The notes under the pieces are model-generated. The model had not been told where the DNA came from and did no database searches. It was given only the letters and a program-made list of their open reading frames with translations. This document shows, one piece after another, positions 14,945-61,795 of a DNA stretch of 64,000 nucleotides (positions are counted from its first letter, which is position 1; every line of letters begins with the position of its first letter). The position numbers and the translations under genes are program-made. The stretch is from Ostreococcus lucimarinus (Eukaryota): assembly GCA_000092065.1 (NCBI GenBank), contig CP000590.1. One strand, written 5' to 3'.

Positions 14945-16040
14945 CTAAAACATTTCCGCCACCATGCTCGCCGCGTCGTTTTGCCCTTGGAATCCGCTGA
15001 GCTCGGCGAGCTTTTCGAGCGTCTGTTCGCCTTCTAGTTTCTTCCCATTGATCACCCACGTCGGGAACCCCTCCACTTTCGCCGCATCACACGCCGTAGC
15101 CACGGGCGTGCCTCGTTCCCACCCATCTGGGAAGCACTCCACGTACGGAATCTGCGCCCCAGCGCCGAACGTCTCCTTTTGTTCGATGCAGTGCGAGCAC
15201 CAAAACGCGCCGTACATCTTCGCTCCGGTCTCTGCGAGATGTTTCGCGAGTGCGCGAGAGTATGCCGTAGACGTTTGCTCCAACTGCGCGGGCGCGTAGG
15301 CTAGTTTCAACCCTTGAGTGTTTTTCGCGTCCGGGCTCTCCGTGAGCACGATGCTCATCGTCAAAACCGTGACGACGTACAACGCGATGGCCGGCGGGAA
15401 CGCGTTGGCGCTCTCTCTCGAACTCAGACCCGCGAAACCGACGCCAAAAAGCGTGAGCGACAGAGCGGCGGACGTCAAGCAGTACAAGCACTCCACACCA
15501 CCGAGCTTGAAGGCTAAAACAAAAAGTAAATACGACGACACGCCGGCTAATCCCGTGGCGCCGAAGAAGAGTAACACGCGCGCCTTGCCGTAGGATGACT
15601 CCAAATCCTTATCGCGTCCGTCGTCGCCTTGCTTCACGAGCTCGTCTTGCATACCCGCCCCCCACCACGCCAGCGCGGCGACCAAACCGTACGCCACCGC
15701 CCCGAACGCGGACAGCGGAATCCCAAACAACTCGGCGTATCCGCTATTCAACGCCGTCTGACACCCGCCCACGGGACACGCCACTTCCCCCCCCGTGAGC
15801 TTTTGCACCGCCAAATACGTCGATTCTAACGCCCCGAATCCCGCTAACCCGGCCATCACGCGCAGAGGCGGACGCGGGAGCGGTCCGGGCGGCAGACTCG
15901 GAGCCGGTTTCGGCTTCGCCTTCGTCTCCGTCGCCGGCTCATCCGTCAGCGCCGGCGCGCTCGCGGGTTCACCGTTCTCCGCCTCGACGACGACCCGCGC
16001 GCGTCGTTCGCGCGCGTCGCGCGCGTCCCATCGTCTCGTT

Positions 16041-16081
<41 letters not shown>

Positions 16082-16144
16082 TCGTCGCGTCCATCGTCCT
16101 CGACGCACCGACGCGCGCGCACCGATCGTCCCCGTCGCCAACAT
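14945..16144 (-). CDS. LTO1: Thylakoid thiol-disulfide oxidoreductase LTO1-like: VKOR (vitamin K epoxide reductase) domain fused to a C-terminal thioredoxin-like domain
   Basis: VKOR region with CPVGGC and multiple transmembrane segments. C-terminal Trx-like WCSHC motif. The VKOR-Trx fusion is the plant/cyanobacterial architecture. N-terminal T13 tract inside a transit-peptide-like region. Confidence 0.7.
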
Positions 16145-20630: not shown

Positions 20631-21574
20631 ATGGCGACGGACGTCGGCGCGCGCCGCGGTGTCCCGACACTTCGCGTCGCGTCGACGACGACGACGACGA
20701 CGATGGCGACGCGCGTCCTCGGCGTCGTCCGTCGCGCGGCGCGCGCGATGTCGAGCGCGATGCGTCGACGCGAACCGCGCGCGCGCGCGACGGTGACGAC
20801 GCGCGCGTGGACGACGACGCTCGAGCGCGCGAACGTTCGAGCGCGCGCGTGGACGACGCCGGCGCGGAGGACGTACGCGCGCGAGCGCGGACGCGCGAGC
20901 GAGGGAGGGAAAAATCGACCGCGCGCGAACGATGAGGTGGGTCGAGGGCGCGGACGGCGAGGCGAGGCGAGGCGAGGCGAGGCGAGGCGACGCGACGGGC
21001 GAGCGCGCGGGACGCGCGGGACTGACGACGAGACGGGCGCGCGAACGAACGATAGATTAAAGCGAAAGTCGTTCGATTGGTGCGAGATGGGGAAGAGGGG
21101 GCGTCGGCGCACGAGGTGATGGCGCTGGAAGAGGCGATGGCGGCGGCGAAAGCGGCGGGAATGGATTTGGTTGAGGTGAACGGAAACGCGTCGCCGCCGG
21201 TGTGTCGAATATTGGATTACGAACGAGTGCGGTACGACATCAGGAAGCGGGCGAAAGAGCAGAAAAAGGCGGTCAGCGCGGCGCAAAAGCGGGACGTGAT
21301 AAAGGAGTTGCGATTGACGGCGAAAATCGACGTGCACGATTTGAATGTGAAGATAAATGGCGCAAAAAAGTTTCTCGACGCGGGAAATCGAGTGACGTTT
21401 CGAATCATGTTTAAGAACTCGGACGGAATAGCGCAGGACAAGCGCGCGACGCGCGGCGCAGAGATCATGGATAACATCATATCGATGCTTGAGGACGTTG
21501 AGGTCGTTCTCAAACCGAAAATGGTGGGTGCAAATCACATGACATGTTCTCTTAAACGACCGACGAAGAAGTGA
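20631..21574 (+). CDS. Organellar translation initiation factor IF3. Two exons: 20631..20945 and 21056..21574, with a 110-bp intron.
   Basis: Exon 2 reads IKAKVVRLVRDGEEGAS..MDLVEVNGNASPPVCRILDYERVRY...KELRLTAKIDVHDLNVKI...NRVTFRIMFKN, matching IF3 N- and C-domains (EVRLI..DGEQLGV..GLDLVEI.PNAEPPVCKIMDYGKF). Exon 1 supplies an Arg/Thr-rich presequence and ends ...RANDE|gtgggt. The acceptor gatag| at 21055 restores the IF3 signature I..EVRLI. The ORF track shows only fragments. Confidence 0.6.
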
Positions 21575-21642: not shown

Positions 21643-24582
21643 TCACCGCGGCTGCGAACGATCTTTCTTCTTGCGCCAGATTGCAAAGTCTTGTCCAGAA
21701 AGCACGCAATCCCACGCGTCGTCTGCATGAAAATGACCAGGTCCAATTTTCATCAAAAGTCGGTCATCGATGACGGCGGCGTACACGCTCTGCTCGCACT
21801 TGACGATTTTCACTTCGCTCCGGCAGTGAATACCGGACTGTTTGCGAATACGAATCATGTCTTCGATGGGTTTGTGCAAATGTCCCCAGTTGTTGTCAAA
21901 GATGTGATCCCAGAAGATTGTCGGCGTGCCCGGGTGGGTCAGGATGTACGCGTATCCTTGAAGCTCTTTGTCGCGAGGAAACCGCCAGTGGCCTTGCGTC
22001 GATCCAGTGTCGTGATTTTCTATGAAAGTCACCGCTCGACTAGGCCACCAACCCATGACACCCGGAGCCTTGCCTGCTTTATCCGATAAGCGCCAATACT
22101 CTTGGCGTTCAAATACGGCGTGCAGGATGCCCTTGGTGGTAACGTCGAACGCGCCGGCGTTTCCGCCGGCGGCGTTGAGCCAGTTCACGATCCGTTGTCG
22201 ATGACCATCTTGGTTGTAATCCAGAGCATCCATGTTATAGGCCAACGAATCCCAGTACTCACCGACCGCGAACTGCGGATTCGTCGCCTCCATGTAATCC
22301 TTCACGTGACCACCCCAGAAACCTCTCACGTAATCGAGTCGCCAACCGTCGTAGCCGACTTCTCGCATGAGCCAGCTCATCCAATCTTCGAGATCAGCCT
22401 TGACGAAAGCTTGATTATGGTCGATATTAGGAGCTGCATGGAACATTTCACCATCGGCTTTGTTTCCTCGGCCATGAAAATTGGGATCGTCTGCCACGAT
22501 GGCTGTCGCGTCCCACGGTAACTTGCCTCCAAACTTGTTGTACGTGCCGGGTACGTCGCCTATGAAATGGGCGCATCGATGGTTAAGCACGGCATCACCG
22601 AGCGCCATCACACCATTATCGTGCAAAGCCTTGATGGCGCCCTTTAATTCTTCCTTTGTGCCGTATCGAGAGTCCAAGTTATAATAATCCAGAGGCATGT
22701 AACCTTGCTCGCTGACGCTCGATGTCGGCGGAGGCAACCAAACCACCGTGAATCCTAGTTCCGCAATGGTGGGTGCAAGTCGCTCGACGGCTTGGTACCA
22801 TGGAGCCTTGCAAGACTCCCAGTTGAAGCCTTGAAGCAAAACTTCCCGACCGTTACCGACGGCTGATTTCTGAGGCTTTTGAATTCGCTCCGCCGGAGCA
22901 AAGTCGTCTTCGCTCAGTGGTGGAGTCGCCACCTCGTACTCGACTTGCATATTCATATCAAGCTCCTTCTCTTCGACTTCATCCATGGAGTCGAGATGCA
23001 ACTCCGCCGCACGAAACGCAGCGGCTGTGGCGACGTCTATCGCTTCCTTAGTCCGCTCACCAGTGAGATCGAGCGTGGTGCTTGCGTACGCCGGCTCGGG
23101 CATGGGAATGACAAAATCGTCGCCATTGCGATCAAGCCACCGTCCTTCTCCACCATTTTCTTTGAGAACAAACCGCATCGCAGTGGGTGCGTTTCCGAGC
23201 TGAAGCTCCGCATAACTCATCTGAATCCGATCGGACAGCGGGTTCTCGCATTTCTTCATGGGAGTCTCGCACGCTTTGCCCGTGTCCCCGACCACTGAAC
23301 CTTCTGGGCGCCATTGTTCCGGAGGCAACGTCCAAACATCCGCACGCGCGCCGCGAGGAACAATACCCCAATGCAAAACAATATTCCACGGAAGTTCAGC
23401 TTCTACACGCACCAAGACTCCACCACCCTCGACGTTCTTTTCCACTACGGCGCCAACTCTATAACTCACTTCTTTCTCGCGAATCAACTTTTCTTCAATG
23501 GTGTTCGTAGTGAGCCAAGGACCCTCCACCAACTTCACCGGCAGCGGTTCATCTATCGACTTAGTGATAGTGCGGGACTTTGTTACCATCCTCTTCACCT
23601 TTCGCATCCCAGTTTTGAGCGTCTTCGGCTTTTCCATGGGAGCCGCTTTGGCCAGTTCAAGTTCCGGTTCAGAGTCCTCATCCTCAGGCGGTCCTTCATC
23701 TCGCGCGGCGATTGGCTTGATAGATGTCAAACCGTTCGAACCAGCGCCAAAAAGTGACTCAACTAAGGCGTTAATATTCTCGTCTTTCGTGTCGAACGGC
23801 TTGGGGTCCACAGGCGGGGTTAGAAGACGTTTCCACGCGTTTGCCGGCTCGGAGATTTCTGACGACGCTGCTGAGACGACTTCCTCCTTGACGGGAGAGC
23901 TCGCGCGCGCGTTCAAATCGATGTTCACTTCGACCACTGATGAAAGTGAGGCGAGAGATTCGTCCAACTCTTGCTCCTCTTGTTCCTCTTCGTATTCTTC
24001 GTCCTCTTCAATCTCTTCCTCATAATCTTCCAGCATAGTAATCGTACGCGTCACTAACTCAGGTTCCGGCGGCTGTGGTATCGGCACGTGCCAATCTCTT
24101 CCGTTCGTGTTATGAATCCAGCGATCTTTCTTTGGTTCTTTGAACAGGAAGTTGATTGCGTAAAAGCCGTCCGCTACGTCACCTTCGATCGTAGCCGTGA
24201 GCGTGGGGCTCAAGCGTGACGACGTCGGCGTCATGCGCGTTTGACATACCCCCGTGGTTTCAATCGTAAACGGCGGTCTAATTTTTACTGGAGGTGTCTC
24301 CATGTTATCCCACGTTTCCTTACTAGTCGCCACGCCCCAATGCATGCGCAAATCTTGCCCTTCGGCGTCCATGTCCGTTTCCACGGTGACCTTGTACTTA
24401 ACACCATTCGTCTCGACCCGAACTTTCACAGAGGCTTCCACGCGCTCGCGCGCCTTGACGACGAAACTTTTCGTGTAAAACTCATCCTTGGCGAATTCAG
24501 CGGCGGCTTCGAGTTCAATCGTCGCCCCTCCCGCTTCTCCTCCGCTCATCGCTCGCGTCGTCGTCGTGGTCCCTCGCGGCAT
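21643..24582 (-). CDS. AMY3: Plastidial alpha-amylase, AMY3-type: N-terminal tandem CBM45-like starch-binding repeats plus C-terminal GH13 catalytic domain
   Basis: C-terminal plant alpha-amylase signature LLQGFNWES...GFTVVWLPPP...GDAVLNHR...DGWRLDYVRG...FVDNHDTG. Two upstream repeats around the HWG motif (RMHWGVATSKETWD and VLHWGIVPRGARADVW) are typical of CBM45. Start taken at the ATG at 24582; upstream sequence is low complexity. Confidence 0.8.
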   Translation of the reverse strand: MPRGTTTTTRAMSGGEAGGATIELEAAAEFAKDEFYTKSFVVKARERVEASVKVRVETNGVKYKVTVETDMDAEGQDLRMHWGVATSKETWDNMETPPVKIRPPFTIETTGVCQTRMTPTSSRLSPTLTATIEGDVADGFYAINFLFKEPKKDRWIHNTNGRDWHVPIPQPPEPELVTRTITMLEDYEEEIEEDEEYEEEQEEQELDESLASLSSVVEVNIDLNARASSPVKEEVVSAASSEISEPANAWKRLLTPPVDPKPFDTKDENINALVESLFGAGSNGLTSIKPIAARDEGPPEDEDSEPELELAKAAPMEKPKTLKTGMRKVKRMVTKSRTITKSIDEPLPVKLVEGPWLTTNTIEEKLIREKEVSYRVGAVVEKNVEGGGVLVRVEAELPWNIVLHWGIVPRGARADVWTLPPEQWRPEGSVVGDTGKACETPMKKCENPLSDRIQMSYAELQLGNAPTAMRFVLKENGGEGRWLDRNGDDFVIPMPEPAYASTTLDLTGERTKEAIDVATAAAFRAAELHLDSMDEVEEKELDMNMQVEYEVATPPLSEDDFAPAERIQKPQKSAVGNGREVLLQGFNWESCKAPWYQAVERLAPTIAELGFTVVWLPPPTSSVSEQGYMPLDYYNLDSRYGTKEELKGAIKALHDNGVMALGDAVLNHRCAHFIGDVPGTYNKFGGKLPWDATAIVADDPNFHGRGNKADGEMFHAAPNIDHNQAFVKADLEDWMSWLMREVGYDGWRLDYVRGFWGGHVKDYMEATNPQFAVGEYWDSLAYNMDALDYNQDGHRQRIVNWLNAAGGNAGAFDVTTKGILHAVFERQEYWRLSDKAGKAPGVMGWWPSRAVTFIENHDTGSTQGHWRFPRDKELQGYAYILTHPGTPTIFWDHIFDNNWGHLHKPIEDMIRIRKQSGIHCRSEVKIVKCEQSVYAAVIDDRLLMKIGPGHFHADDAWDCVLSGQDFAIWRKKKDRSQPR

Positions 24583-25190
24583 CTGTAAACTCTTTGTCCT
24601 CTTCGACTCCCCGAGCTCGAGTCTATCGTCACCGTCCCGTTCACCGACCGTCACCGATCGCGCGCGCGCAAACGTTCGACACCTCGCCCGCGTCGTCGTC
24701 GCGCATCGCGCGCCGCGTCGTCCATCTCTCTCCGCCTTCGCCTTCGCCTTCGCCTTCGTCCCGCCGCGTCCCCGCGCGTCGCGCGTCGTTCCCGCGACGT
24801 TCGCGCGCATCGACTCCATCGCGCGCGAAACACCCGCGCTTTCGTCGACGCTCGCGCGTCCGTCGCGCGCTCGTCGCGACGCGCGCCGAACCGAACGCGC
24901 GCGTCGTTCGATCGGTCGTCGTTCGCGCCAACGCTGTCACGATCGGCGTCGCGTCGTCGCGCGCGCGCTGCGGTGCGGTGCGGTGTCGCTCGCGACGACG
25001 CGCGCGCGCGACGATCGTCGTTCGTCGCGCGCGCTCGCGTGCGGCTCGGGCGTTCGACGCCGCGCGGCGCGAGGGCCAAGATGTGCCGAGGCGCCGGGGC
25101 GGTCGCCGCGCGCGCGTGTTTGAAATGGAGCGCGGGTCGGAGGTCGCGAGCGGTGTTGCGTGCTTACAAGCGAGCGGAAGCGTGATTAGT

Positions 25191-31169: not shown

Positions 31170-33384
<2,215 letters not shown>

Positions 33385-33455: not shown

Positions 33456-35078
33456 CTAAAAACATTTTTCGAGCTCGTCGTCGCCTATTTCGTCAAACGT
33501 TGGGGCGGCAAGCTCTTTGTCGTCTATCTCGTCAAAAGTCGGGGGCTTGTACAGCAACTTCAACAGTTCATGCGACTCATCCAATACATCTTTACTCAAT
33601 TTGTGCCACGCACCTCGGATACCACGGCAGTCGGGATCGTGGCATCTCTGATAGTACGCGTCCTCGCGGAAATCGATGACGAACATCACATTGTTGCTCT
33701 TGTGCGCTCGTTCGATGTTTTCGCAAAACCGATTCCCAAACAGATTGAGGATTAACACACCATACTCTGGAAACGCCTTCCACGAGCGCACGGCCGCACC
33801 GCCGTGACCGCTCCAGCGATCAAAGTCTTTGCAAACGAACGAAGCCGTGCGAGGACAAGGTCCGATTGCGTTGCCGTTGAACTCAGACGCGGTGCGCGCT
33901 AGGTGAGACCCGGTTCGATATCCTTGGAATGCTTGTCCGCGCAATACCGAAGTATGCGTGACGCCTTCGAATCGAATCACTTTGGCTTCCAAAATCAAAC
34001 ACGTCGCTGACACCAGCGATCGTTTGAAAGTTTCAAAACTTACTTCAGATTTACTCTTCCAAAATCGTCCGGTAGTCTTCAGAATCGGTTTATTCGTCTC
34101 TTCGCTGTGCTTGTTCGACAAGTAGAGGCGAAACACTCGATTTCGGGTGTACACACCAAGATCGATGAACGGCTCGGTCTTTTCGACGTCGTCTCTCTCT
34201 TTGCGTAAGAACATCGCGTCGCATCGGTCGTCCTCGCCGCGCCGCGACTCTACGGTGTGCCAAAGTTTTCTGACAAAGTGCGCACAATGCGAATTGTCGG
34301 CAAAGACTTGATCATCAGGAAGTTGTATGATCAAGTGACGACTGAACTTGGTCTCGCTTTCGCTATCGAGCTCGACGATGTGCTCCAGCTCATCAAACTT
34401 GGACGTGTCTATCTCCGGCGTCGCCTTCAGCTCCTCTACGATGAGCTGAACCAACCAATCCATCATTCGCACGCCGTCGACGTCTGGGTTTGAAACCTTG
34501 GAAAACTCAACGTCAAAGTACAAATGACAATGGGTATCTTCTCGCATGAGTTCGTAATAGTGGCGCTCCTTCAGACTTTCGTAATATTTCCAAAACGTGC
34601 GCAAGTCTTTCGGGCCGAGCATTCGAACCCCGACGTATTGTCGAAGCCCGCCTTTCTCTTCTAATTGGCGGCAAAAGTACATGTAGGGCTCTTGCACATC
34701 TTCCGAAAGTCTCCTTTGATCCACAGCTTCGAACAATTCTTGCTGCCTGTAACTTTTGATCCAGAATCGGTCTGGTTGCTTGCTCTCTCTTTCGTCCTCT
34801 TCTCGCACGACTCGCTTGCGCCTTTTCCTCGTGTCTTCCTCCTCTTTCTTTCGTTTCGTGTCTTCTCCGTCGTAGAAACTGCTGGGATCATACGGTCTTA
34901 TCGCGTCGAAATCTATGGATGTACGCGCTTTCGTGTTCTCGTCCTTCTTCGGAGGCGAAAGCCGTGGATCGTATATTTCTCGCATCTGCCGTCGTTCGTA
35001 AACCGTTGCGTCGCGGTCAGTCGCCGTCGCGTGTGAAATCGCACGAGTATGTAGACCAATTATGGCTCGATACGCCAT
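33456..35078 (-). CDS. PRIMPOL: Primase-polymerase PrimPol (archaeo-eukaryotic primase superfamily) with C-terminal UL52-type zinc finger
   Basis: AEP motif I HLYFDVEF (DxE), motif II KFSRHLII (SxH), motif III TRNRVFRLYLSNK, C-terminal CHDPDCRGI zinc finger. Confidence 0.75.
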   Translation of the reverse strand: MAYRAIIGLHTRAISHATATDRDATVYERRQMREIYDPRLSPPKKDENTKARTSIDFDAIRPYDPSSFYDGEDTKRKKEEEDTRKRRKRVVREEDERESKQPDRFWIKSYRQQELFEAVDQRRLSEDVQEPYMYFCRQLEEKGGLRQYVGVRMLGPKDLRTFWKYYESLKERHYYELMREDTHCHLYFDVEFSKVSNPDVDGVRMMDWLVQLIVEELKATPEIDTSKFDELEHIVELDSESETKFSRHLIIQLPDDQVFADNSHCAHFVRKLWHTVESRRGEDDRCDAMFLRKERDDVEKTEPFIDLGVYTRNRVFRLYLSNKHSEETNKPILKTTGRFWKSKSEVSFETFKRSLVSATCLILEAKVIRFEGVTHTSVLRGQAFQGYRTGSHLARTASEFNGNAIGPCPRTASFVCKDFDRWSGHGGAAVRSWKAFPEYGVLILNLFGNRFCENIERAHKSNNVMFVIDFREDAYYQRCHDPDCRGIRGAWHKLSKDVLDESHELLKLLYKPPTFDEIDDKELAAPTFDEIGDDELEKCF

Positions 35079-48755: not shown

Positions 48756-49619
48756 TTAATCCCCCTCTCGGCGCCCACCGCCCCAACTCGTGAGCTCCTC
48801 GACCTCCTCCCACGCGATCGCGCACGCCTCTCTCGTCGCCCCGCTCGCGCACAGTTCGATCGCGCGCGCCACCGCCGCCTCCACCGCGCTCCGCCTCGCC
48901 GCGCTCGGATCCGCCTCGCCGCTCGTCGCCGCGTCTCCGTCCTCCTCTCTCGCCATCAACCGTCCGCGCGCCTCGAGCGTGCCCTCCGCCACCGTGCACT
49001 CCCCCAACCCTCGACACGGCAGCGATCCCATGAGCGGATCCTTCGCTAATCGTTCGCGCATCTCCTTCGCCTTGGCCCGTTTCGCCGCCTCCTCCGCCTT
49101 CGTCGTCTTCCCGCGCGCGTTCAAATCCAAATCCTCCCCCTCTCCGCGCGTTCGCACCCCCGCTCGAGACGCCGCGTCTCGCACCTCCGCCACCTCTTCC
49201 CACGCCGTCACGCAGCTCGCGCTCGCCGTCCCCTCTTCCTCGCACGACGCCTTCGCGCGTTCCACGGCTTCGCGTAAAATCATCTCCAGTCGTCCCCTCC
49301 GCGCGTCGTCCCTCGCCGTCGTCGCCGCGTCCTCGTCCGCTCGCGTCGCGCCGTACAGCGTCTCCAGCGCCACCGCCGCGATCTTCGCCTGCGCCGCGCT
49401 CAGCTCGACGCGCCGCTCGACGCGCGCGCCGTCGTCGTCGTCGCGGGACGTCGCGTCGGCTTTGAAATCGTCGAAATCATCGTCTTCGCGCGCGCCTCGC
49501 GCTCGACCCGTCGCGCGTCGCGCTCGACGGCTCGCGCGCGACGCGCGGGAAGGGCGCGCGAACGACCTCGAGCGCTGATTCGGCGCCCGCACCGCCGCGG
49601 GCGTCGCGAGACGCGTCAT
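48756..49619 (-). CDS. CP12-domain protein with two CP12-like C-terminal motifs (Calvin-cycle GAPDH/PRK regulator family), chloroplast transit peptide
   Basis: Two copies of Cx(7-9)C-AWEEV(E/A)E(L/V): SCEEEGTASASCVTAWEEVAEV and CASGATREACAIAWEEVEELTS. Start at the ATG 49619 (MTRLATPAAVRAP...). The ORF-track extension to 50264 is poly-Arg low complexity. Confidence 0.5.
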   Translation of the reverse strand: MTRLATPAAVRAPNQRSRSFARPSRASRASRRARRATGRARGAREDDDFDDFKADATSRDDDDGARVERRVELSAAQAKIAAVALETLYGATRADEDAATTARDDARRGRLEMILREAVERAKASCEEEGTASASCVTAWEEVAEVRDAASRAGVRTRGEGEDLDLNARGKTTKAEEAAKRAKAKEMRERLAKDPLMGSLPCRGLGECTVAEGTLEARGRLMAREEDGDAATSGEADPSAARRSAVEAAVARAIELCASGATREACAIAWEEVEELTSWGGGRREGD

Positions 49620-56454: not shown

Positions 56455-59163
56455 ATGTCGAGCCTCGTCCGCGCGCTGTCGCGACGCGTCAGTCGCGCGG
56501 CGCGCGAGGCCGCGGACGCCCCCGAAGACGCGCCCGCGCCCTCGGCGCCGCCGTTGAGCGCCGAAAGCGCCGACTCGGCGAACGACCACCTGACACCGTC
56601 GCCCGCGCAAGAAATGACGAAAACCGCCGCCGCCGACGGCGACGCGGCGTCGAGCGACGCGGAAGAGACCGCGCTCGACGCCGGCGAGGTTATTCTCGAG
56701 CGAGACGACGCCAGGGTGCCGGTGCTGCTGAAGCAAACGTCGTCGACGCTGCTGCCTCGCGACGAGGCGAAGAGGCTCGAACGAATGTTGTCGACGGATG
56801 TGCGGGACATGATGGCGAAGGAGGTGTGGGCGTGTCGACCGTCGACGTTCATCAGACTCACGATGCGGGCGCCGGTGCTGATGATGATTTTGTCGATTAT
56901 TTTTTGGGTGGCGGCGGGCGCGTACGCGCTGGTGCGGAAACCGCCAAAGGTGGAGACGGATGTCGCGGGATTTAGCATTCGCGATCATCCCACGGCGAGG
57001 CTTAAGGATGCGATTTGGAGCGCGGAGAGTGAGTCGGAGTTTAATTGGGACGCCATGTTGACCGCGGGTGGGTCGGCGAGCGTGGGGACGATTCCGTACG
57101 TGACGAGTTGGCTCGATTCGGGTGGATATTTGACGTCGCCTTCGGCGGTGCGAAAGATGCGTCGATTGCAATCGTACGTCGCGACAGAAAGACCGAGCTC
57201 ATATAGTTCGTTTCAGCTCGTTTACACGTCCACGCGTGGGGAGAATGTGTTACGCGAGGAGGTGATGAAATTCGCGTTGGATTTGGAGGGCAAAATTACG
57301 CGACTCCCGGGCTACGCAGAGACGATGTGCTTGCAGATCGCAGACACGGAGTATTTAGGCTCGAACGGATGCACGCCGCCAAATTCCATAGCACCTTTAT
57401 TCTTCGCGACGACGGTGAGCGGGACTTACTACAGAAATACCGTCGATGTCACCATGAGTTTGGCGTCGAGGGGGTTGTATGTCTACGTCGACAAGGATTT
57501 CGACGCCGCGAACGGCACCGCGTCGTCGTTTAGAACGAGCTTTCCAATCGGTCAGCCTAGTAAGGCAGTGTGGAAAAAGTGGATGAAGAGCACTCTAGTT
57601 CCGTTTTTACGAGCAAACACGAGAGATGAGGCAAAAGGCATTCGATGTCTCTATGGGGGCAAAGAAATCACCCAGTATGAAGCCGATTTGGCAATCTTGC
57701 ACGACGCGAAACTCATCATTGCCGGCTTGTCGCTCGTGGTCGTGTACACATACTTTCACACCGGCTCTGTTTTCATCACGTTTGCGGGAATATTTGAAAT
57801 TATTCTATCTTTTCCCGTCGCGTACGCGTTTTACGCATACGTTTTGAAGTTGGAGTCGATTAGCGTGATGCAGTTTTTGGCGATTTTCATCATACTCGGC
57901 ATCGGCGTCGACGACGTCTTTGTATTTTACGATTCTTTCGAGGATGCTTCGCGCGCCGTGGGGATACGCGGTGACACCCTCGAAGCACGATTAAATTATG
58001 CTTATGATCACGCTGGAAGAGCGATGCTGGTGACTTCGATGACTTCAGGCGCGGCATTCGCCGCAAACCTCGCCTCCGCCATTCCGGCGGTGCAAATATT
58101 TGGTGTCTTTATCGCTGTGATGGTTTTGGTAAATTACTTCCTCGTCATCACCTGGTTTCCCGCATGTTTGTGCGCGTACGAGCGATACTGGCGAGTTTCC
58201 AAAGATTTCAACTATTGTGGCCTCGGAGGCTTGCGTACGAAGCACCTCCCTTCCGCTGAAATGGATGCTCGCGCGGCGCAACGCGCCGAATCTTGTTTGA
58301 GCTGCATCAAGCGTGTCGCTTGCTTTGGTCAAAAGTTGAACCAATATCAAAACGTCATGGCAGCGCAAAAGAAGAAACGTTCGATCTTTACATGGAGAAC
58401 TTACGGTGCATACTTGGATGTTTTCAAGTACATCTTGCTCGTCATTTGCCTCGGATCGATGGCAGTGACTGGATATTTCTCAACCAAGACGGAGGCGAGC
58501 GGGCAACCGCCAGAGCTGTTTCCGGCAGACTCGAATCAGCAAATGTTCATCAAGTGGACGGAATCGCAATTCGAGAGCGATAAATTCGCCTGCACGAGCT
58601 TTGCGCACTGTCAGCAACAGGCTGGGACTGTGCTACAGCAAAACGGTGTGACGCTGTCGCCGCCGCCACCGTCGCCGTCTCCTCCTCCTCCTCCCAGGTC
58701 GCAAGTCGGAACCATCACTTCTCCAGAGATTGATCAATTAGCAGACGTAGTATTCAATACTTTCGACAGCGACGCGAATGGTTGGCTGGACACGACGGAG
58801 TATGACTCTTTCGCAGCGGCGGTAACGACGACGACGAGCCTACCACCCGCGAACACCGTGATGAGCGCGTACGGCACGCCGCAAGGTGTCACAAAACCGG
58901 GATTTGTTCTCGCCCTGGATACAGCTGCTGGCGTAAACGACGCACCGGTACTAGATGCGTATTCGCTCCTCGTCTTAGGCACAGCAAGATCGAGCCCTCC
59001 TCCACCAAGTCCACCGCCGTCACCCCCGCCTTCGCCGCCGTCACCGCCGCCACCCCCGCCTTCGCCGCCGTCACCGCCGCCGCCGCCGTCACCGCCGCCA
59101 CCCCCGCCTTCGCCGCCGTCACCGCCGCCGCCGCCGTCGCCGCCACCGAGTTCCAATCCATCA

Positions 59164-59195
<32 letters not shown>

Positions 59196-60777
59196 GTCAC
59201 CGCCGCCGCCGCCGTCACCGCCGCCGTCACCGCCGCCGTCGCCGCCGCCGCCGCCGTCACCGCCACCGTCGCCACCGCCGCCGGAGGCGCTCCAAGCTGC
59301 CGAGCGCGTCGCGGGGACGAATTACGAAAAGGCGCAACTCGTGTGGGGCATCGAAGATATTCAAGACGATTCTGCGCCATATGCTCCGCGAGAGGTTGAC
59401 GCTAATCCGGTGGTCAACCCCGCGTTTAACATCGGCGACCCCACGACTCAAGTCCGCATGTTGAAGTTCTGCGAAGCGTTGCAAAACAGAACGGACCTCG
59501 CGAGTTCGTTTAAGGAGTGCCCGATGCAGATTCTCAAAAACGTTGGAACGACGCTTTCATACCCTTGGCCGATGAGCTCGGCGCAAATCTTAAGTGTCAT
59601 CACGTCCATCGCGACGCAGAATCCCGGGTACAGAAAAATCTACGGCTTACAGACGGTGACGTCGGGCGGCGCCTCCACCCAACGCGTCGCTTGGGTCAAG
59701 GCGAACTTCTTGTCGGGGATTCCATTTCGAATGTCGGCGACGAAGCTTGAACAAGAATATTTCAAGTTTCTCGATTTCATCGCCGAGTTTGAAGCAACAA
59801 CGTTTCAGTACTCCGCGACGAATGCGAACGGGTCGGTGACGCTCCATTCCGCCCCTCCCACGGCGTCGGCGACAGTGAGAGTGACCTCCGAGTGTTGGGT
59901 GCGCATGGCAACGGAGCTGCAAGCCATTCGAGGCACGGTGAGCTCGATCGCAGTGTCCCTCGCGTTTGCCGTTTTCGCCACGCTCATTTTCACCGGCGAC
60001 GTCTTTGTGGCTCTCATGGCGCTGCTGAGCATGCTCGCCATCATCCTCGCCGTCATCGCGATTCTAGTCGCGCTCAAGGTGAAGTTTGGCATCGTCGAAG
60101 CGATTTCGCTCACAATTCTCGTCGGCATCTCTGTCGACTTCAGCTTGCACTTGGCCGAGTCGTTCACGCGCTCACACTTCACGAGTCGCGGCTTGCGCGG
60201 CGTCGACGCGGTCTCGCGCGTCGGTTATCCGATTTTCTCCGCCGCGATGACGACCATGTCCGCCGTCATACCGATGCTTTGGTGTCAAGTCCAAGTTCTC
60301 GTGCGCTTCGGACAAATCATTCCTCTGTGCATCGTGATGTCGTTGGTGTACGGCGTACACTTCTTCCTCCCGATGCTCATGTCGTTCGGGCCCAACGTTC
60401 CCGGCGGCGGCGCCGGAAAATGGTTGTGCCACATGGGAAAGCTTCCCGGCTTGCTCTTCAGCACGCAAACTCGCCGCATGATTTTCCTCGTCGCCTCCGG
60501 CATGATCTTCGGCTTTTTGCTCCCCGCCACGCGCGCGCTCCTGTACGAGGACGGCGGCTCCGCCTTCGCCGTCGTCGCCGGCGGCTTCGCCTTCCTCTCC
60601 GCCGTCGCCGTCTTCGTCGAGCGACGATGTCATCTCCGCGCCGTCGCCGCCGCCGACCCCTCCGCGCGGTCCCACGTCGCTCGCGCCGCTCGACTCGCCG
60701 CCGCTCGACTCGCCGTCCCCGCCCCGCGTCCGCGTCCCGTCGACGCGCGACCTTCGCCTTTGCCCTCGCGCGCGTGA
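56455..60777 (+). CDS. RND-superfamily membrane protein with sterol-sensing domain (Patched/Dispatched/NPC1-like 12-TM topology). Its large second extracytoplasmic loop carries a canonical EF-hand and an extensin-like (S)Pn block.
   Basis: SSD signature GIGVDDVFVFYDSF. Second RND repeat with ISLTILVGISVDFSLHLAESF. Multiple predicted TM helices. EF-hand loop DSDANGWLDTTE (58769..58804). (SPPPP)n at 58990..59283. Confidence 0.7.
58990..59283 (+). repeat. Coding proline-rich repeat ((S)P3-5 extensin-like, ~100 residues) inside the RND/SSD gene
   Basis: SPPPPSPPPSPPPSPPSPPPPPPSPPSPPPPPSPPPPPPSPPSPPPPPSPPPSSNPSSSPPPSPPPPPSPPPPPSPPPSPPPSPPPPPSPPPSPPPP read in frame. Confidence 0.85.
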
Positions 60778-61045: not shown

Positions 61046-61795
61046 ATGTCGAGCGCGCGCGCGACGACGCGCGCGACGATCGCGTCGAGGTCGGTGACGG
61101 CGAGGCGCGCGCTCGGCGCGAGGGCGGCGCGAAAGACGACGCGGCGACGCGCGAAGGGCGACGAGGCGACGACGGCGGAGACAGCGCTGGCGGCGACGAA
61201 TCCGACGGATAAAAAGTACGTCGCGTTGAACGGGGTGAAACTGGTCGTGGACTTTGAGATGCACTACGAGACGAAGTTTGGGGAGACGGTGTGCGTGCTG
61301 GGGAGCCACGAGGCGATGGGGGCGTGGGAATTGGAGCGGGCGACGGCGCTGGAGTGGCACGAGGGGTCGGTTTGGAAGCTGAGCGTGGAGTTGCCGGCGG
61401 GGGGGGTGTTCTTTTACAAGTACATCGTCAAGGGCGCGAACGGTGAGGTGTTGCGGTGGCAAGACGGAAGTAACTCCATGCTCGTGCTTCCGGAGAGCTG
61501 GAACGTGCCGAACGGATCGCACTACCTCGTCGAGGATAACTTTGCGGGCGTGCCGAACGAAACGACGGAGATTTCCGAACACTTGCTCGCGGGTAAGCTC
61601 GTGGACGCGCAAGGCGAAAAGACGCAATTGTTGCAACAACTCGAGGTGCAAAAGACGATGACGCAAACCGCGCTCGAAGAACTTTTGCTCGCGCGCGAAG
61701 ATCTCGCCAGAGCGCAATCAAAGTTGTTGTCGGCGTCTTCCGAAACCGCCGCCTACGACGTCAACAATGGCAACCAAAACGGATTCTCCCGCTAA
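61046..61795 (+). CDS. CBM20 starch-binding domain protein with C-terminal coiled coil, plastid transit peptide
   Basis: CBM20 fold signature KYVALNGVKLVVDFEMHYETKFGETVCVLGSHEAMGAWELERATALEWHEGSVWKLSVELPAGGVFFYKYIV...EVLRWQDGSNSMLVLPESW. Then heptad-rich LLQQLEVQKTMTQTALEELLLAREDLARAQSKLL. N-terminal S/T/R/A-rich presequence. Confidence 0.7.
   Translation: MSSARATTRATIASRSVTARRALGARAARKTTRRRAKGDEATTAETALAATNPTDKKYVALNGVKLVVDFEMHYETKFGETVCVLGSHEAMGAWELERATALEWHEGSVWKLSVELPAGGVFFYKYIVKGANGEVLRWQDGSNSMLVLPESWNVPNGSHYLVEDNFAGVPNETTEISEHLLAGKLVDAQGEKTQLLQQLEVQKTMTQTALEELLLAREDLARAQSKLLSASSETAAYDVNNGNQNGFSR

Follow-up and report, generated by a model that had tools for sequence, protein, structure and literature searches.

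An AMY3-type alpha-amylase, a CBM20 long-helix protein and a tandem CP12-like protein in a 64-kb stretch of Ostreococcus lucimarinus DNA: probably three separate nuclear genes

The stretch of DNA analysed here (the window) comprises 64,000 nucleotides of contig CP000590.1, nuclear DNA of Ostreococcus lucimarinus CCE9901, a picoplanktonic green alga of the Mamiellophyceae whose genome was published in 2007. The content of guanine and cytosine (GC) ranges from 51 to 70%, gene density is high and the genes are mostly intron-free; annotated as a whole, the window holds ~32 of them. Three are the subject of this work: an alpha-amylase of the AMY3 type at 21643..24819 on the minus strand, a non-canonical CP12-domain protein at 48756..49619, likewise on the minus strand, and a small protein that combines a CBM20 domain with a long helix at 61046..61795 on the plus strand. 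An earlier note on this DNA had suggested that the three may be functionally linked components of plastid carbohydrate metabolism and had associated the amylase with redox-regulated starch degradation. Our analysis indicates that they are very probably three separate nuclear genes, presumably with plastid-targeted products, that do not form a functional cluster, the amylase being the AMY3-type enzyme of the Mamiellophyceae.

The amylase is encoded by a single intron-free open reading frame (ORF) of 1058 amino acids (aa) plus stop, with the stop codon at 21643-21645. Earlier the gene had been placed at 21643-24582; frame and stop end were right, but position 24582 is the first letter of Met80 in the longer ORF. 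Candidates for the start codon are Met1 at 24819, Met80 at 24582 and Met91 at 24549, all in one frame. The N-terminal extension (~aa 1-123; 24451..24819, on the minus strand like all other features of this gene) has a high content of Arg, Ala, Thr and Lys; it may serve as plastid presequence and spacer. It was modelled as disordered: in the AlphaFold2 (AF2) model the predicted local distance difference test score (pLDDT) is <50 for aa 1-110. This model of the full-length protein was poor (mean pLDDT 56) and was used for secondary-structure hints only. The metagenome protein P0001 shares 99% identity with the window protein, and other homologues from Mamiellophyceae share 54-66%; three of the latter (P0005, P0006 and P0007) carry comparable Arg/Ser/Ala-rich extensions of 110-140 aa in front of their first CBM45 module. 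Since homologues of related algae have extensions of this length, Met1 is the likelier start if the amylase is imported into the plastid, as it putatively is.

We scanned the protein with profile hidden Markov models (HMM). PF23166, the N-terminal Ig-like domain of GWD1 that we took as the CBM45 module throughout, matched in two stretches at 1e-32, and PF00128 and PF07821 matched as well. CBM45-type module 1 (~aa 124-248; 24076..24450) bears an HWG motif at aa 160-162 and a second conserved tryptophan, W234; scanned separately it scored 54.6 bits (cut-off 27), and it is beta-rich in the AF2 model with a pLDDT of 72-92. Module 2 (~aa 448-573; 23101..23478) bears HWG at aa 483-485 and W561 and scored 68.4 bits against the same cut-off. 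The two modules share 29% identity (E = 7e-12) and thus represent an internal repeat. In an alignment of algal and plant sequences W561 is invariant, and H483, W484 and G485 are nearly so. These two tryptophans of CBM45 are reported to be its starch-binding residues (Mikkelsen et al. 2006; Glaring et al. 2011). Between the modules lies an acidic, low-complexity linker (EDYEEEIEEDEEYEEEQEEQE...; ~aa 249-447; 23479..24075), with a pLDDT <50 over most of aa 273-406; the acidic stretch recurs in the Mamiellophyceae homologues. The linker between module 2 and the catalytic domain (~aa 574-654; 22858..23100) contains a single short conserved helix at aa 591-606, AIDVATAAAFRAAELH.

The GH13 catalytic (beta/alpha)8 domain follows at ~aa 655-994 (21838..22857; PF00128), and its catalytic motifs are intact: GWRLD829YVRG, GE854YW and FIENHD937. 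It aligned with the rice and barley alpha-amylase structures at E = 6e-111, including the nucleophile motif WRLD, the acid/base motif GEYW and the NHD motif. A plant-type alpha-amylase C-terminal beta-sheet domain at aa 995-1048 (21676..21837) completes the protein (PF07821, 65.1 bits, cut-off 27). The arrangement proposed earlier, two HWG-containing CBM45-like modules followed by GH13, was therefore borne out by the profile matches to PF23166, found twice, and PF00128. Across the three proteins, the CBM45, CBM20 and CP12 domains all scored above their cut-offs, and the matches lie far beyond chance.

A homologue search with the complete 1058-aa sequence yielded 11 matches, probably because low-complexity words dominated it, and was repeated with the catalytic domain alone. 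The closest named relatives of this domain are land-plant proteins with 60-63% identity in which PF23166 is also present, among them a protein named 'Alpha-amylase 3, chloroplastic' from Mucuna. We place the amylase nearest to land-plant AMY3 on the basis of best search matches and identity. The Mamiellophyceae homologues (54-66% identity, as above) have the full CBM45-CBM45-GH13 architecture. AMY3-like genes in Micromonas pusilla and O. lucimarinus were noted by Glaring et al. 2011, as stated in a 2025 paper (PMC12046210), and a 2019 survey of plant alpha-amylases lists the O. lucimarinus protein Osluci_46693 beside AT1G69830. The amylase is accordingly of a known type, the Mamiellophyceae counterpart of AMY3, and as such it is ordinary and had been documented before.

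Some observations on related amylases may be added. The closest GH13 homologues in core chlorophytes (Chlorella, Coccomyxa, Tetraselmis and Bryopsis) are without PF23166, and some have an ACT domain (PF01842) instead; among the green algae sampled, the CBM45-bearing form was seen only in Mamiellophyceae. Two amylase homologues from GC-rich Mamiellales (P0009 and P0010; contig L025, 10001-13960) are 1319-1403 aa long and contain an Ala/Glu-rich, apparently helical insertion of ~350 aa between the second CBM45 module and GH13, the site at which land plants have the short BAM9-binding hairpin. The convergent pairing of the gene for IF3, the organellar translation initiation factor 3 (21077-21574, plus strand), with the amylase (21643-24819, minus strand) is also found on this 69%-GC contig (L025, 10001-15726).

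In full-length land-plant sequences of the AMY3 type, one cysteine in the motif EILCQGFNWES and another in NHRC lie exactly 88 residues apart (5 of 6 sequences). We take these to be the columns of Cys499 and Cys587 of Arabidopsis AMY3 (AtAMY3). The assignment follows the published numbering (PMC12046210), the exact 88-residue spacing (587 minus 499) in the plant sequences and the AtAMY3 sequence. AtAMY3 is reported to be inactivated through a disulfide between these two cysteines (PMC12046210). The window amylase has Leu662 at the position of Cys499 and retains a cysteine, Cys749, at that of Cys587. In an alignment of the window protein with seven homologues, the Cys499 equivalent was absent from all eight Mamiellophyceae sequences, which have Leu or Ile there and retain just the second cysteine. 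With leucine at this position the Arabidopsis disulfide cannot form, and the redox regulation with which the amylase had been associated is not upheld.

A second element of plant AMY3 control, the helical hairpin that binds BAM9, appears to be absent too. When aligned with plant AMY3 the window amylase had no counterpart of the hairpin segment 'IINEIRNLV...KEAQESILQEIEKLAAEAYSIF', and AF2 predicted only one helix, the one at aa 591-606, in the linker between module 2 and GH13, with low confidence. Algal AMY3-like proteins have been described as lacking the alpha-alpha hairpin (PMC12046210). In O. tauri, AGPase and GWD are without the plant redox motifs, there is no analogue of TR-BAMY, and transcriptional control was proposed instead; 2 of 4 alpha-amylase isoforms peak at dusk (PMC3056741). 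Given the loss of Cys499 and of the BAM9 hairpin, control of the window amylase is more likely transcriptional (diel), as has been proposed for other starch enzymes of Ostreococcus. The loss of the AMY3 redox switch fits the published absence of redox motifs in AGPase and GWD. Mamiellophyceae lack the Arabidopsis style of AMY3 control, and so 'AMY3 architecture' should not be read as implying 'redox-regulated'.

The CBM20 protein (61046..61795, plus strand) has 249 aa and is identical to the O. lucimarinus 'predicted protein' XP_001419899.1 / ABO98192.1 / UniProt A4S3D1. It consists of a presequence (aa 1-~60), a CBM20 domain folded as a beta-sandwich (aa 65-165; 61238-61540; PF00686) and, in the AF2 model, a single 74-residue helix (aa 172-245; 61559-61780). 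PF00686 scored 66 bits at aa 68-152 (cut-off 23.3). The AF2 model, built from an alignment of 24 sequences, has a mean pLDDT of 81, with the first ~60 aa disordered, the sandwich at 86-97 and the continuous helix at 87-97. In Foldseek the sandwich matched best to CBM20 of glucoamylase and of STBD1, with a root-mean-square deviation of 1.3-1.7 A. W94, W104, W110, Y124, Y126 and W138 are conserved across the 24 aligned sequences of the family. A fixed-register heptad count on the helix gave a weak signal (0.33 versus a background of 0.24). The layout described earlier, a small protein with an N-terminal CBM20 domain followed by a coiled coil, thus stands as far as domain and order are concerned, on both HMM and AF2 evidence, while the coiled coil itself is plausible rather than proven.

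The earlier note had also described this protein as apparently uncharacterised, which is not borne out. A HMMER search of 1.84 billion representative proteins returned 262 matches at E <= 1e-10, many of which span both CBM20 and the helix. The members that carry a name belong to Chlamydomonas (Cre09.g415600), Tetradesmus, Nephroselmis, Cymbomonas, Parachlorella, Apatococcus and Trebouxia, and matches from the first five of these genera and from Trebouxia cover query aa ~66-230; one cluster includes the haptophyte Diacronema. The family thus spans the green algae, and its O. tauri member, the presumed orthologue of the window protein, was reportedly characterised biochemically as CBM20CP. This protein is reported to bind to starch and to have a stimulating effect on starch synthase III-B (Velazquez et al. 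2022, Plant Mol Biol). In Chlamydomonas, Cre09.g415600 is located at the starch sheath of the pyrenoid (PMC10473226). Judged by its domains and relatives, the window protein belongs to a recognised family of non-catalytic starch-granule adaptors, in which the CBM20 domain would bind the granule while the long helix would serve to recruit partners or to bring about their oligomerisation. Membership of the PTST family was considered and rejected, as CBM48 reached 14.5 bits, under its cut-off of 22.4, compared with 66 bits for CBM20, and the helix lies C-terminal to the CBM. Several JGI/IMG records call this protein 'NOL1/NOP2/fmu family ribosome biogenesis protein'; the name conflicts with the domains and looks like a propagated annotation error.

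The CP12-domain protein (48756..49619, minus strand, 48756 being the stop end) has 287 aa. After a presequence of ~45 aa the mature protein would measure ~230-240 aa, compared with ~80 aa for canonical CP12. PF02672 matched in two stretches with 40.4 bits (cut-off 22.7). Module 1 (aa 115-153; 49161-49277) contains C126-x9-C136 followed by AWEEVAEV, module 2 (aa 245-277; 48789-48887) contains C257-x8-C266 followed by AWEEVEEL, and each passes the cut-off alone (28.8 and 27.0 bits). Both modules cover just the N-terminal half of the profile, from position 4/5 to 37/43 of 70. In the solved GAPDH-CP12-PRK complexes it is the N-terminal half of CP12 that contacts PRK. The modules align with the N-terminal cysteine pair and the AWDEVEEL core of Arabidopsis CP12-2 (PDB 6KEZ, 3QV1) and of cyanobacterial CP12. 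A profile search of the PDB with the whole alignment had ranked designed repeat proteins first, owing to spuriously summed repeats, and was re-run for each module. The C-terminal CxxxPxxxxC loop and the Y(D/E) tail, which bind GAPDH, are absent from the 287-aa protein, which ends in ...WGGGRREGD. Between the modules lies the invariant sequence DPLMGSLPC202-x5-C208 (48963-49040, minus strand), which may be a remnant of the GAPDH-binding loop.

The earlier note had described the protein encoded at 48756 as a CP12-domain protein acting as a redox regulator of the Calvin cycle. The domain is present; a canonical regulator it is not, with two modules of the N-terminal type and no GAPDH-binding C-terminus. 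We read it as a divergent form of CP12 in which the PRK-binding half occurs in tandem. A paper of July 2026 scored the Mamiellophyceae as having kept GapB and as lacking CP12 (PMC13491260). Its filter let a protein pass only if the core motif was accompanied by both canonical cysteine pairs, and the protein described here would fail it. A literature search on CP12 in Micromonas and Ostreococcus returned nothing relevant. Metagenomes scanned for distant relatives of the CP12-like protein yielded Ostreococcus-type loci only; one candidate for a distant homologue, P0231, was rejected as a frame-scrambled gene call. It is possible, although we put this forward tentatively, that Ostreococcus and perhaps the Mamiellophyceae split the CP12 system rather than lost it, with the PRK-binding half surviving in duplicate. 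The modules could then bind PRK in the oxidising dark, one per module, and inactivate or cross-link it without the classical GAPDH-CP12-PRK complex. The protein qualifies the statement that Mamiellophyceae lack CP12 and offers a candidate means of PRK regulation there. This tandem, tail-less version is the only part of our results with some novelty, and it is mildly new.

We next consider the readings that compete with that of three separate genes. A physically linked and co-regulated plastid carbohydrate module of amylase, CBM20 scaffold and CP12 would account for the presence of all three inside ~40 kb, and the distances given earlier are correct in this respect: measured from the amylase ORF (24819), the CP12-like gene is ~24 kb and the CBM20 gene ~36 kb away. 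Moreover, each of the three proteins has an N-terminal extension with much Arg, Ala, Ser and Thr, as would fit plastid targeting, and a protein made of CBM20 and a helix could plausibly recruit starch enzymes. However, the genes do not all share one strand, and ~30 unrelated housekeeping genes are interspersed (all genes of the window but the three of interest fall in this class), TTI1, DEAD-box helicases, Dna2, HSP90, TFIIS and THOC5 among them. The genome of O. tauri has a size of ~13 Mb. With the 43 starch genes annotated in this species (PMC3056741) and that genome size, the chance of a starch gene having another within +/-40 kb is 0.23, and it rises to 0.45 for a wider class of 100 'plastid carbohydrate' genes; the class, moreover, was chosen after the genes had been seen. 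Gene order in a Mamiellales lineage with 69-70% GC also argues against linkage: beside the amylase orthologue the convergent IF3 and an M3 peptidase close by are retained, but no gene for CBM20 or CP12 lies within +/-10 kb. Within the same distance of the CBM20 orthologue there is neither an amylase nor a CP12 gene, and its context is entirely different; the neighbours are proteasome, glycerol-3-phosphate-dehydrogenase-like and ion-channel genes, none of which adjoins CBM20 in the window. The IF3/amylase/M3 peptidase microsynteny, found in the GC-rich Mamiellales as well, predates the split between genera. We therefore regard a linked module as very unlikely. For the proximity of the three genes the best explanation is chance, the genome being very compact; the argument from neighbourhood fails, and the amylase finding in the form first given is mostly of little weight.

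Doubts of another kind could be raised about two of the individual proteins. Many long spurious ORFs arise on both strands of GC-rich Ostreococcus DNA, and the CP12-like protein diverges more rapidly than the products of adjacent genes (50-63% identity versus 72-84% for HSP90 and CMAS), as a spurious or degenerating frame might. Yet the same frame occupies one slot, TRM10 - CP12-like - RanBP1, in 24 metagenome loci (L001-L024) from several Ostreococcus clades, and 13 homologues, whose overall identity is 49-86%, share all six cysteines and both AWE.VE cores without exception; in addition, each module passes the Pfam gathering threshold separately. The conserved slot together with the invariant residues argues that the gene is real and constrained, and we consider a spurious frame extremely improbable. 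As to the amylase, redox regulation might proceed via a different disulfide, formed by the Ostreococcus-specific Cys670 (NWESC) and the conserved Cys749 (NHRC). Cys749 is the retained equivalent of Cys587, and Cys670 sits 8 residues past the lost Cys499 position and is found in the window protein and its closer homologues from Ostreococcus (P0002, P0003, P0004 and P0005). It is not conserved throughout the order, however, as P0006 and P0007 have Ser, and P0009 and P0010 have Ala, in its place, and the Ostreococcus AGPase and GWD without plant redox motifs, along with the missing TR-BAMY analogue (PMC3056741), speak against a redox-controlled pathway. Cys670 is a weak candidate for a replacement cysteine, and redox control by this route seems unlikely to us, though less remote than a linked module or a spurious CP12 frame.

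The preferred reading, three separate genes with an AMY3-type amylase among them, leads to the following role for the enzyme. The amylase would act as an endo-acting GH13 alpha-1,4-glucan hydrolase, most likely tethered by its two CBM45 modules to the alga's one starch granule. The affinity of CBM45 is low: for potato GWD1 CBM45-2 a dissociation constant of 0.38-0.68 mM for beta-cyclodextrin was reported (PMC6243121). The enzyme would contribute to starch breakdown from dusk through the night and would be controlled mainly via its expression. Several points weigh against this reading and should be kept in view. The start codon could be any of Met1, Met80 and Met91, and plastid location, starch-degrading role and timing are all inferred. 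The published diel profiles concern isoforms of O. tauri, in which the orthologue of this amylase would be one of Ot16g00380, Ot02g05490, Ot10g00260 and Ot07g02010. Since the full-length AF2 model is poor, the view that the linker has a single helix and no hairpin depends mainly on the alignment and the literature. Finally, the synteny comparison in other genera covers +/-10 kb, compared with the 36-kb span of the three genes.

The remaining genes of the window are the housekeeping genes mentioned above. They include TTI1, two DEAD-box helicases, an M3 peptidase, JmjC/cupin proteins, a VKOR-domain protein and a WD40 protein, DnaJ, IF3, a bromodomain protein, ATP sulfurylase, Cpn60, a primase-like protein, Dna2 and an Alg13-like glycosyltransferase, as well as a methyltransferase, a GTPase, RanBP1, a tRNA methyltransferase, HSP90, TFIIS, an FHA protein, a Patched/SSD protein and THOC5. 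Four of them deserve a remark. The VKOR (vitamin K epoxide reductase) domain protein at 14945-16144 (minus strand; 399 aa, with an Arg/Thr-rich presequence) resembles the thiol-oxidising LTO1 type of plastids and is a further redox-related plastid candidate. The Cpn60/TCP-1 gene is split over two ORFs, 31327-32124 and 32302-33384 (plus strand), which correspond to positions 1-155 and 241-488 of the profile, as would fit a short intron or a frameshift in this nearly intron-free stretch. At 33456-35078 (minus strand) a 540-aa protein with a Herpesviridae UL52/UL70 DNA primase domain (PF03121, 44 bits) is probably a cellular primase of the PrimPol type. In the middle of the sterol-sensing/Patched-domain protein at 56455-60777 (plus strand; 1440 aa), SPPPP/PPSPP repeats form a long run that resembles extensin.

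Comparison with known systems places each of the three proteins. Arabidopsis AMY3 (At1g69830) and its land-plant orthologues have the same order of parts as the window amylase, namely presequence (putative in the window protein), CBM45, CBM45, linker, GH13 and C-terminal beta domain; in addition to the 60-63% identity of the catalytic domain, the catalytic motifs and the HWG and Trp positions of CBM45 are kept. The Ostreococcus enzyme differs from AtAMY3 in having leucine for the redox-active Cys499, in lacking the alpha-alpha hairpin of the BAM9-binding region and in the ~200-aa acidic linker that separates its CBM45 modules. It is also longer, 1058 aa versus ~890 aa for AtAMY3. Compared with canonical CP12 as represented by Arabidopsis CP12-2, the window protein is the N-terminal half duplicated in tandem, without the GAPDH-binding tail; other non-canonical CP12-domain proteins with which it may be compared are the cyanobacterial CBS-CP12 (PDB 5NMU) and GapB's C-terminal extension.

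The CBM20 protein shares its plan with the green-algal starch proteins that combine CBM20 and a coiled coil: a presequence, an N-terminal CBM20, a long helix downstream and no catalytic domain. Cre09.g415600 (443 aa) matches it over both regions (E = 2.9e-16, query aa 6-220). BSG1 of Chlamydomonas (Cre02.g091750) consists of a transit peptide, CBM20 and a coiled coil, and its loss leads to abnormal starch granules (PMC6374437). The order of parts is the same in the window protein, which we liken to BSG1 by layout and which is 249 aa long, compared with 792 aa for BSG1. With PTST1-3 of land plants it has a common logic, that of a non-catalytic adaptor in which a starch-binding module is joined to a coiled coil for protein partners. 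However, the module in the window protein is CBM20 instead of CBM48, and the order is reversed, with the CBM first and the helix last.

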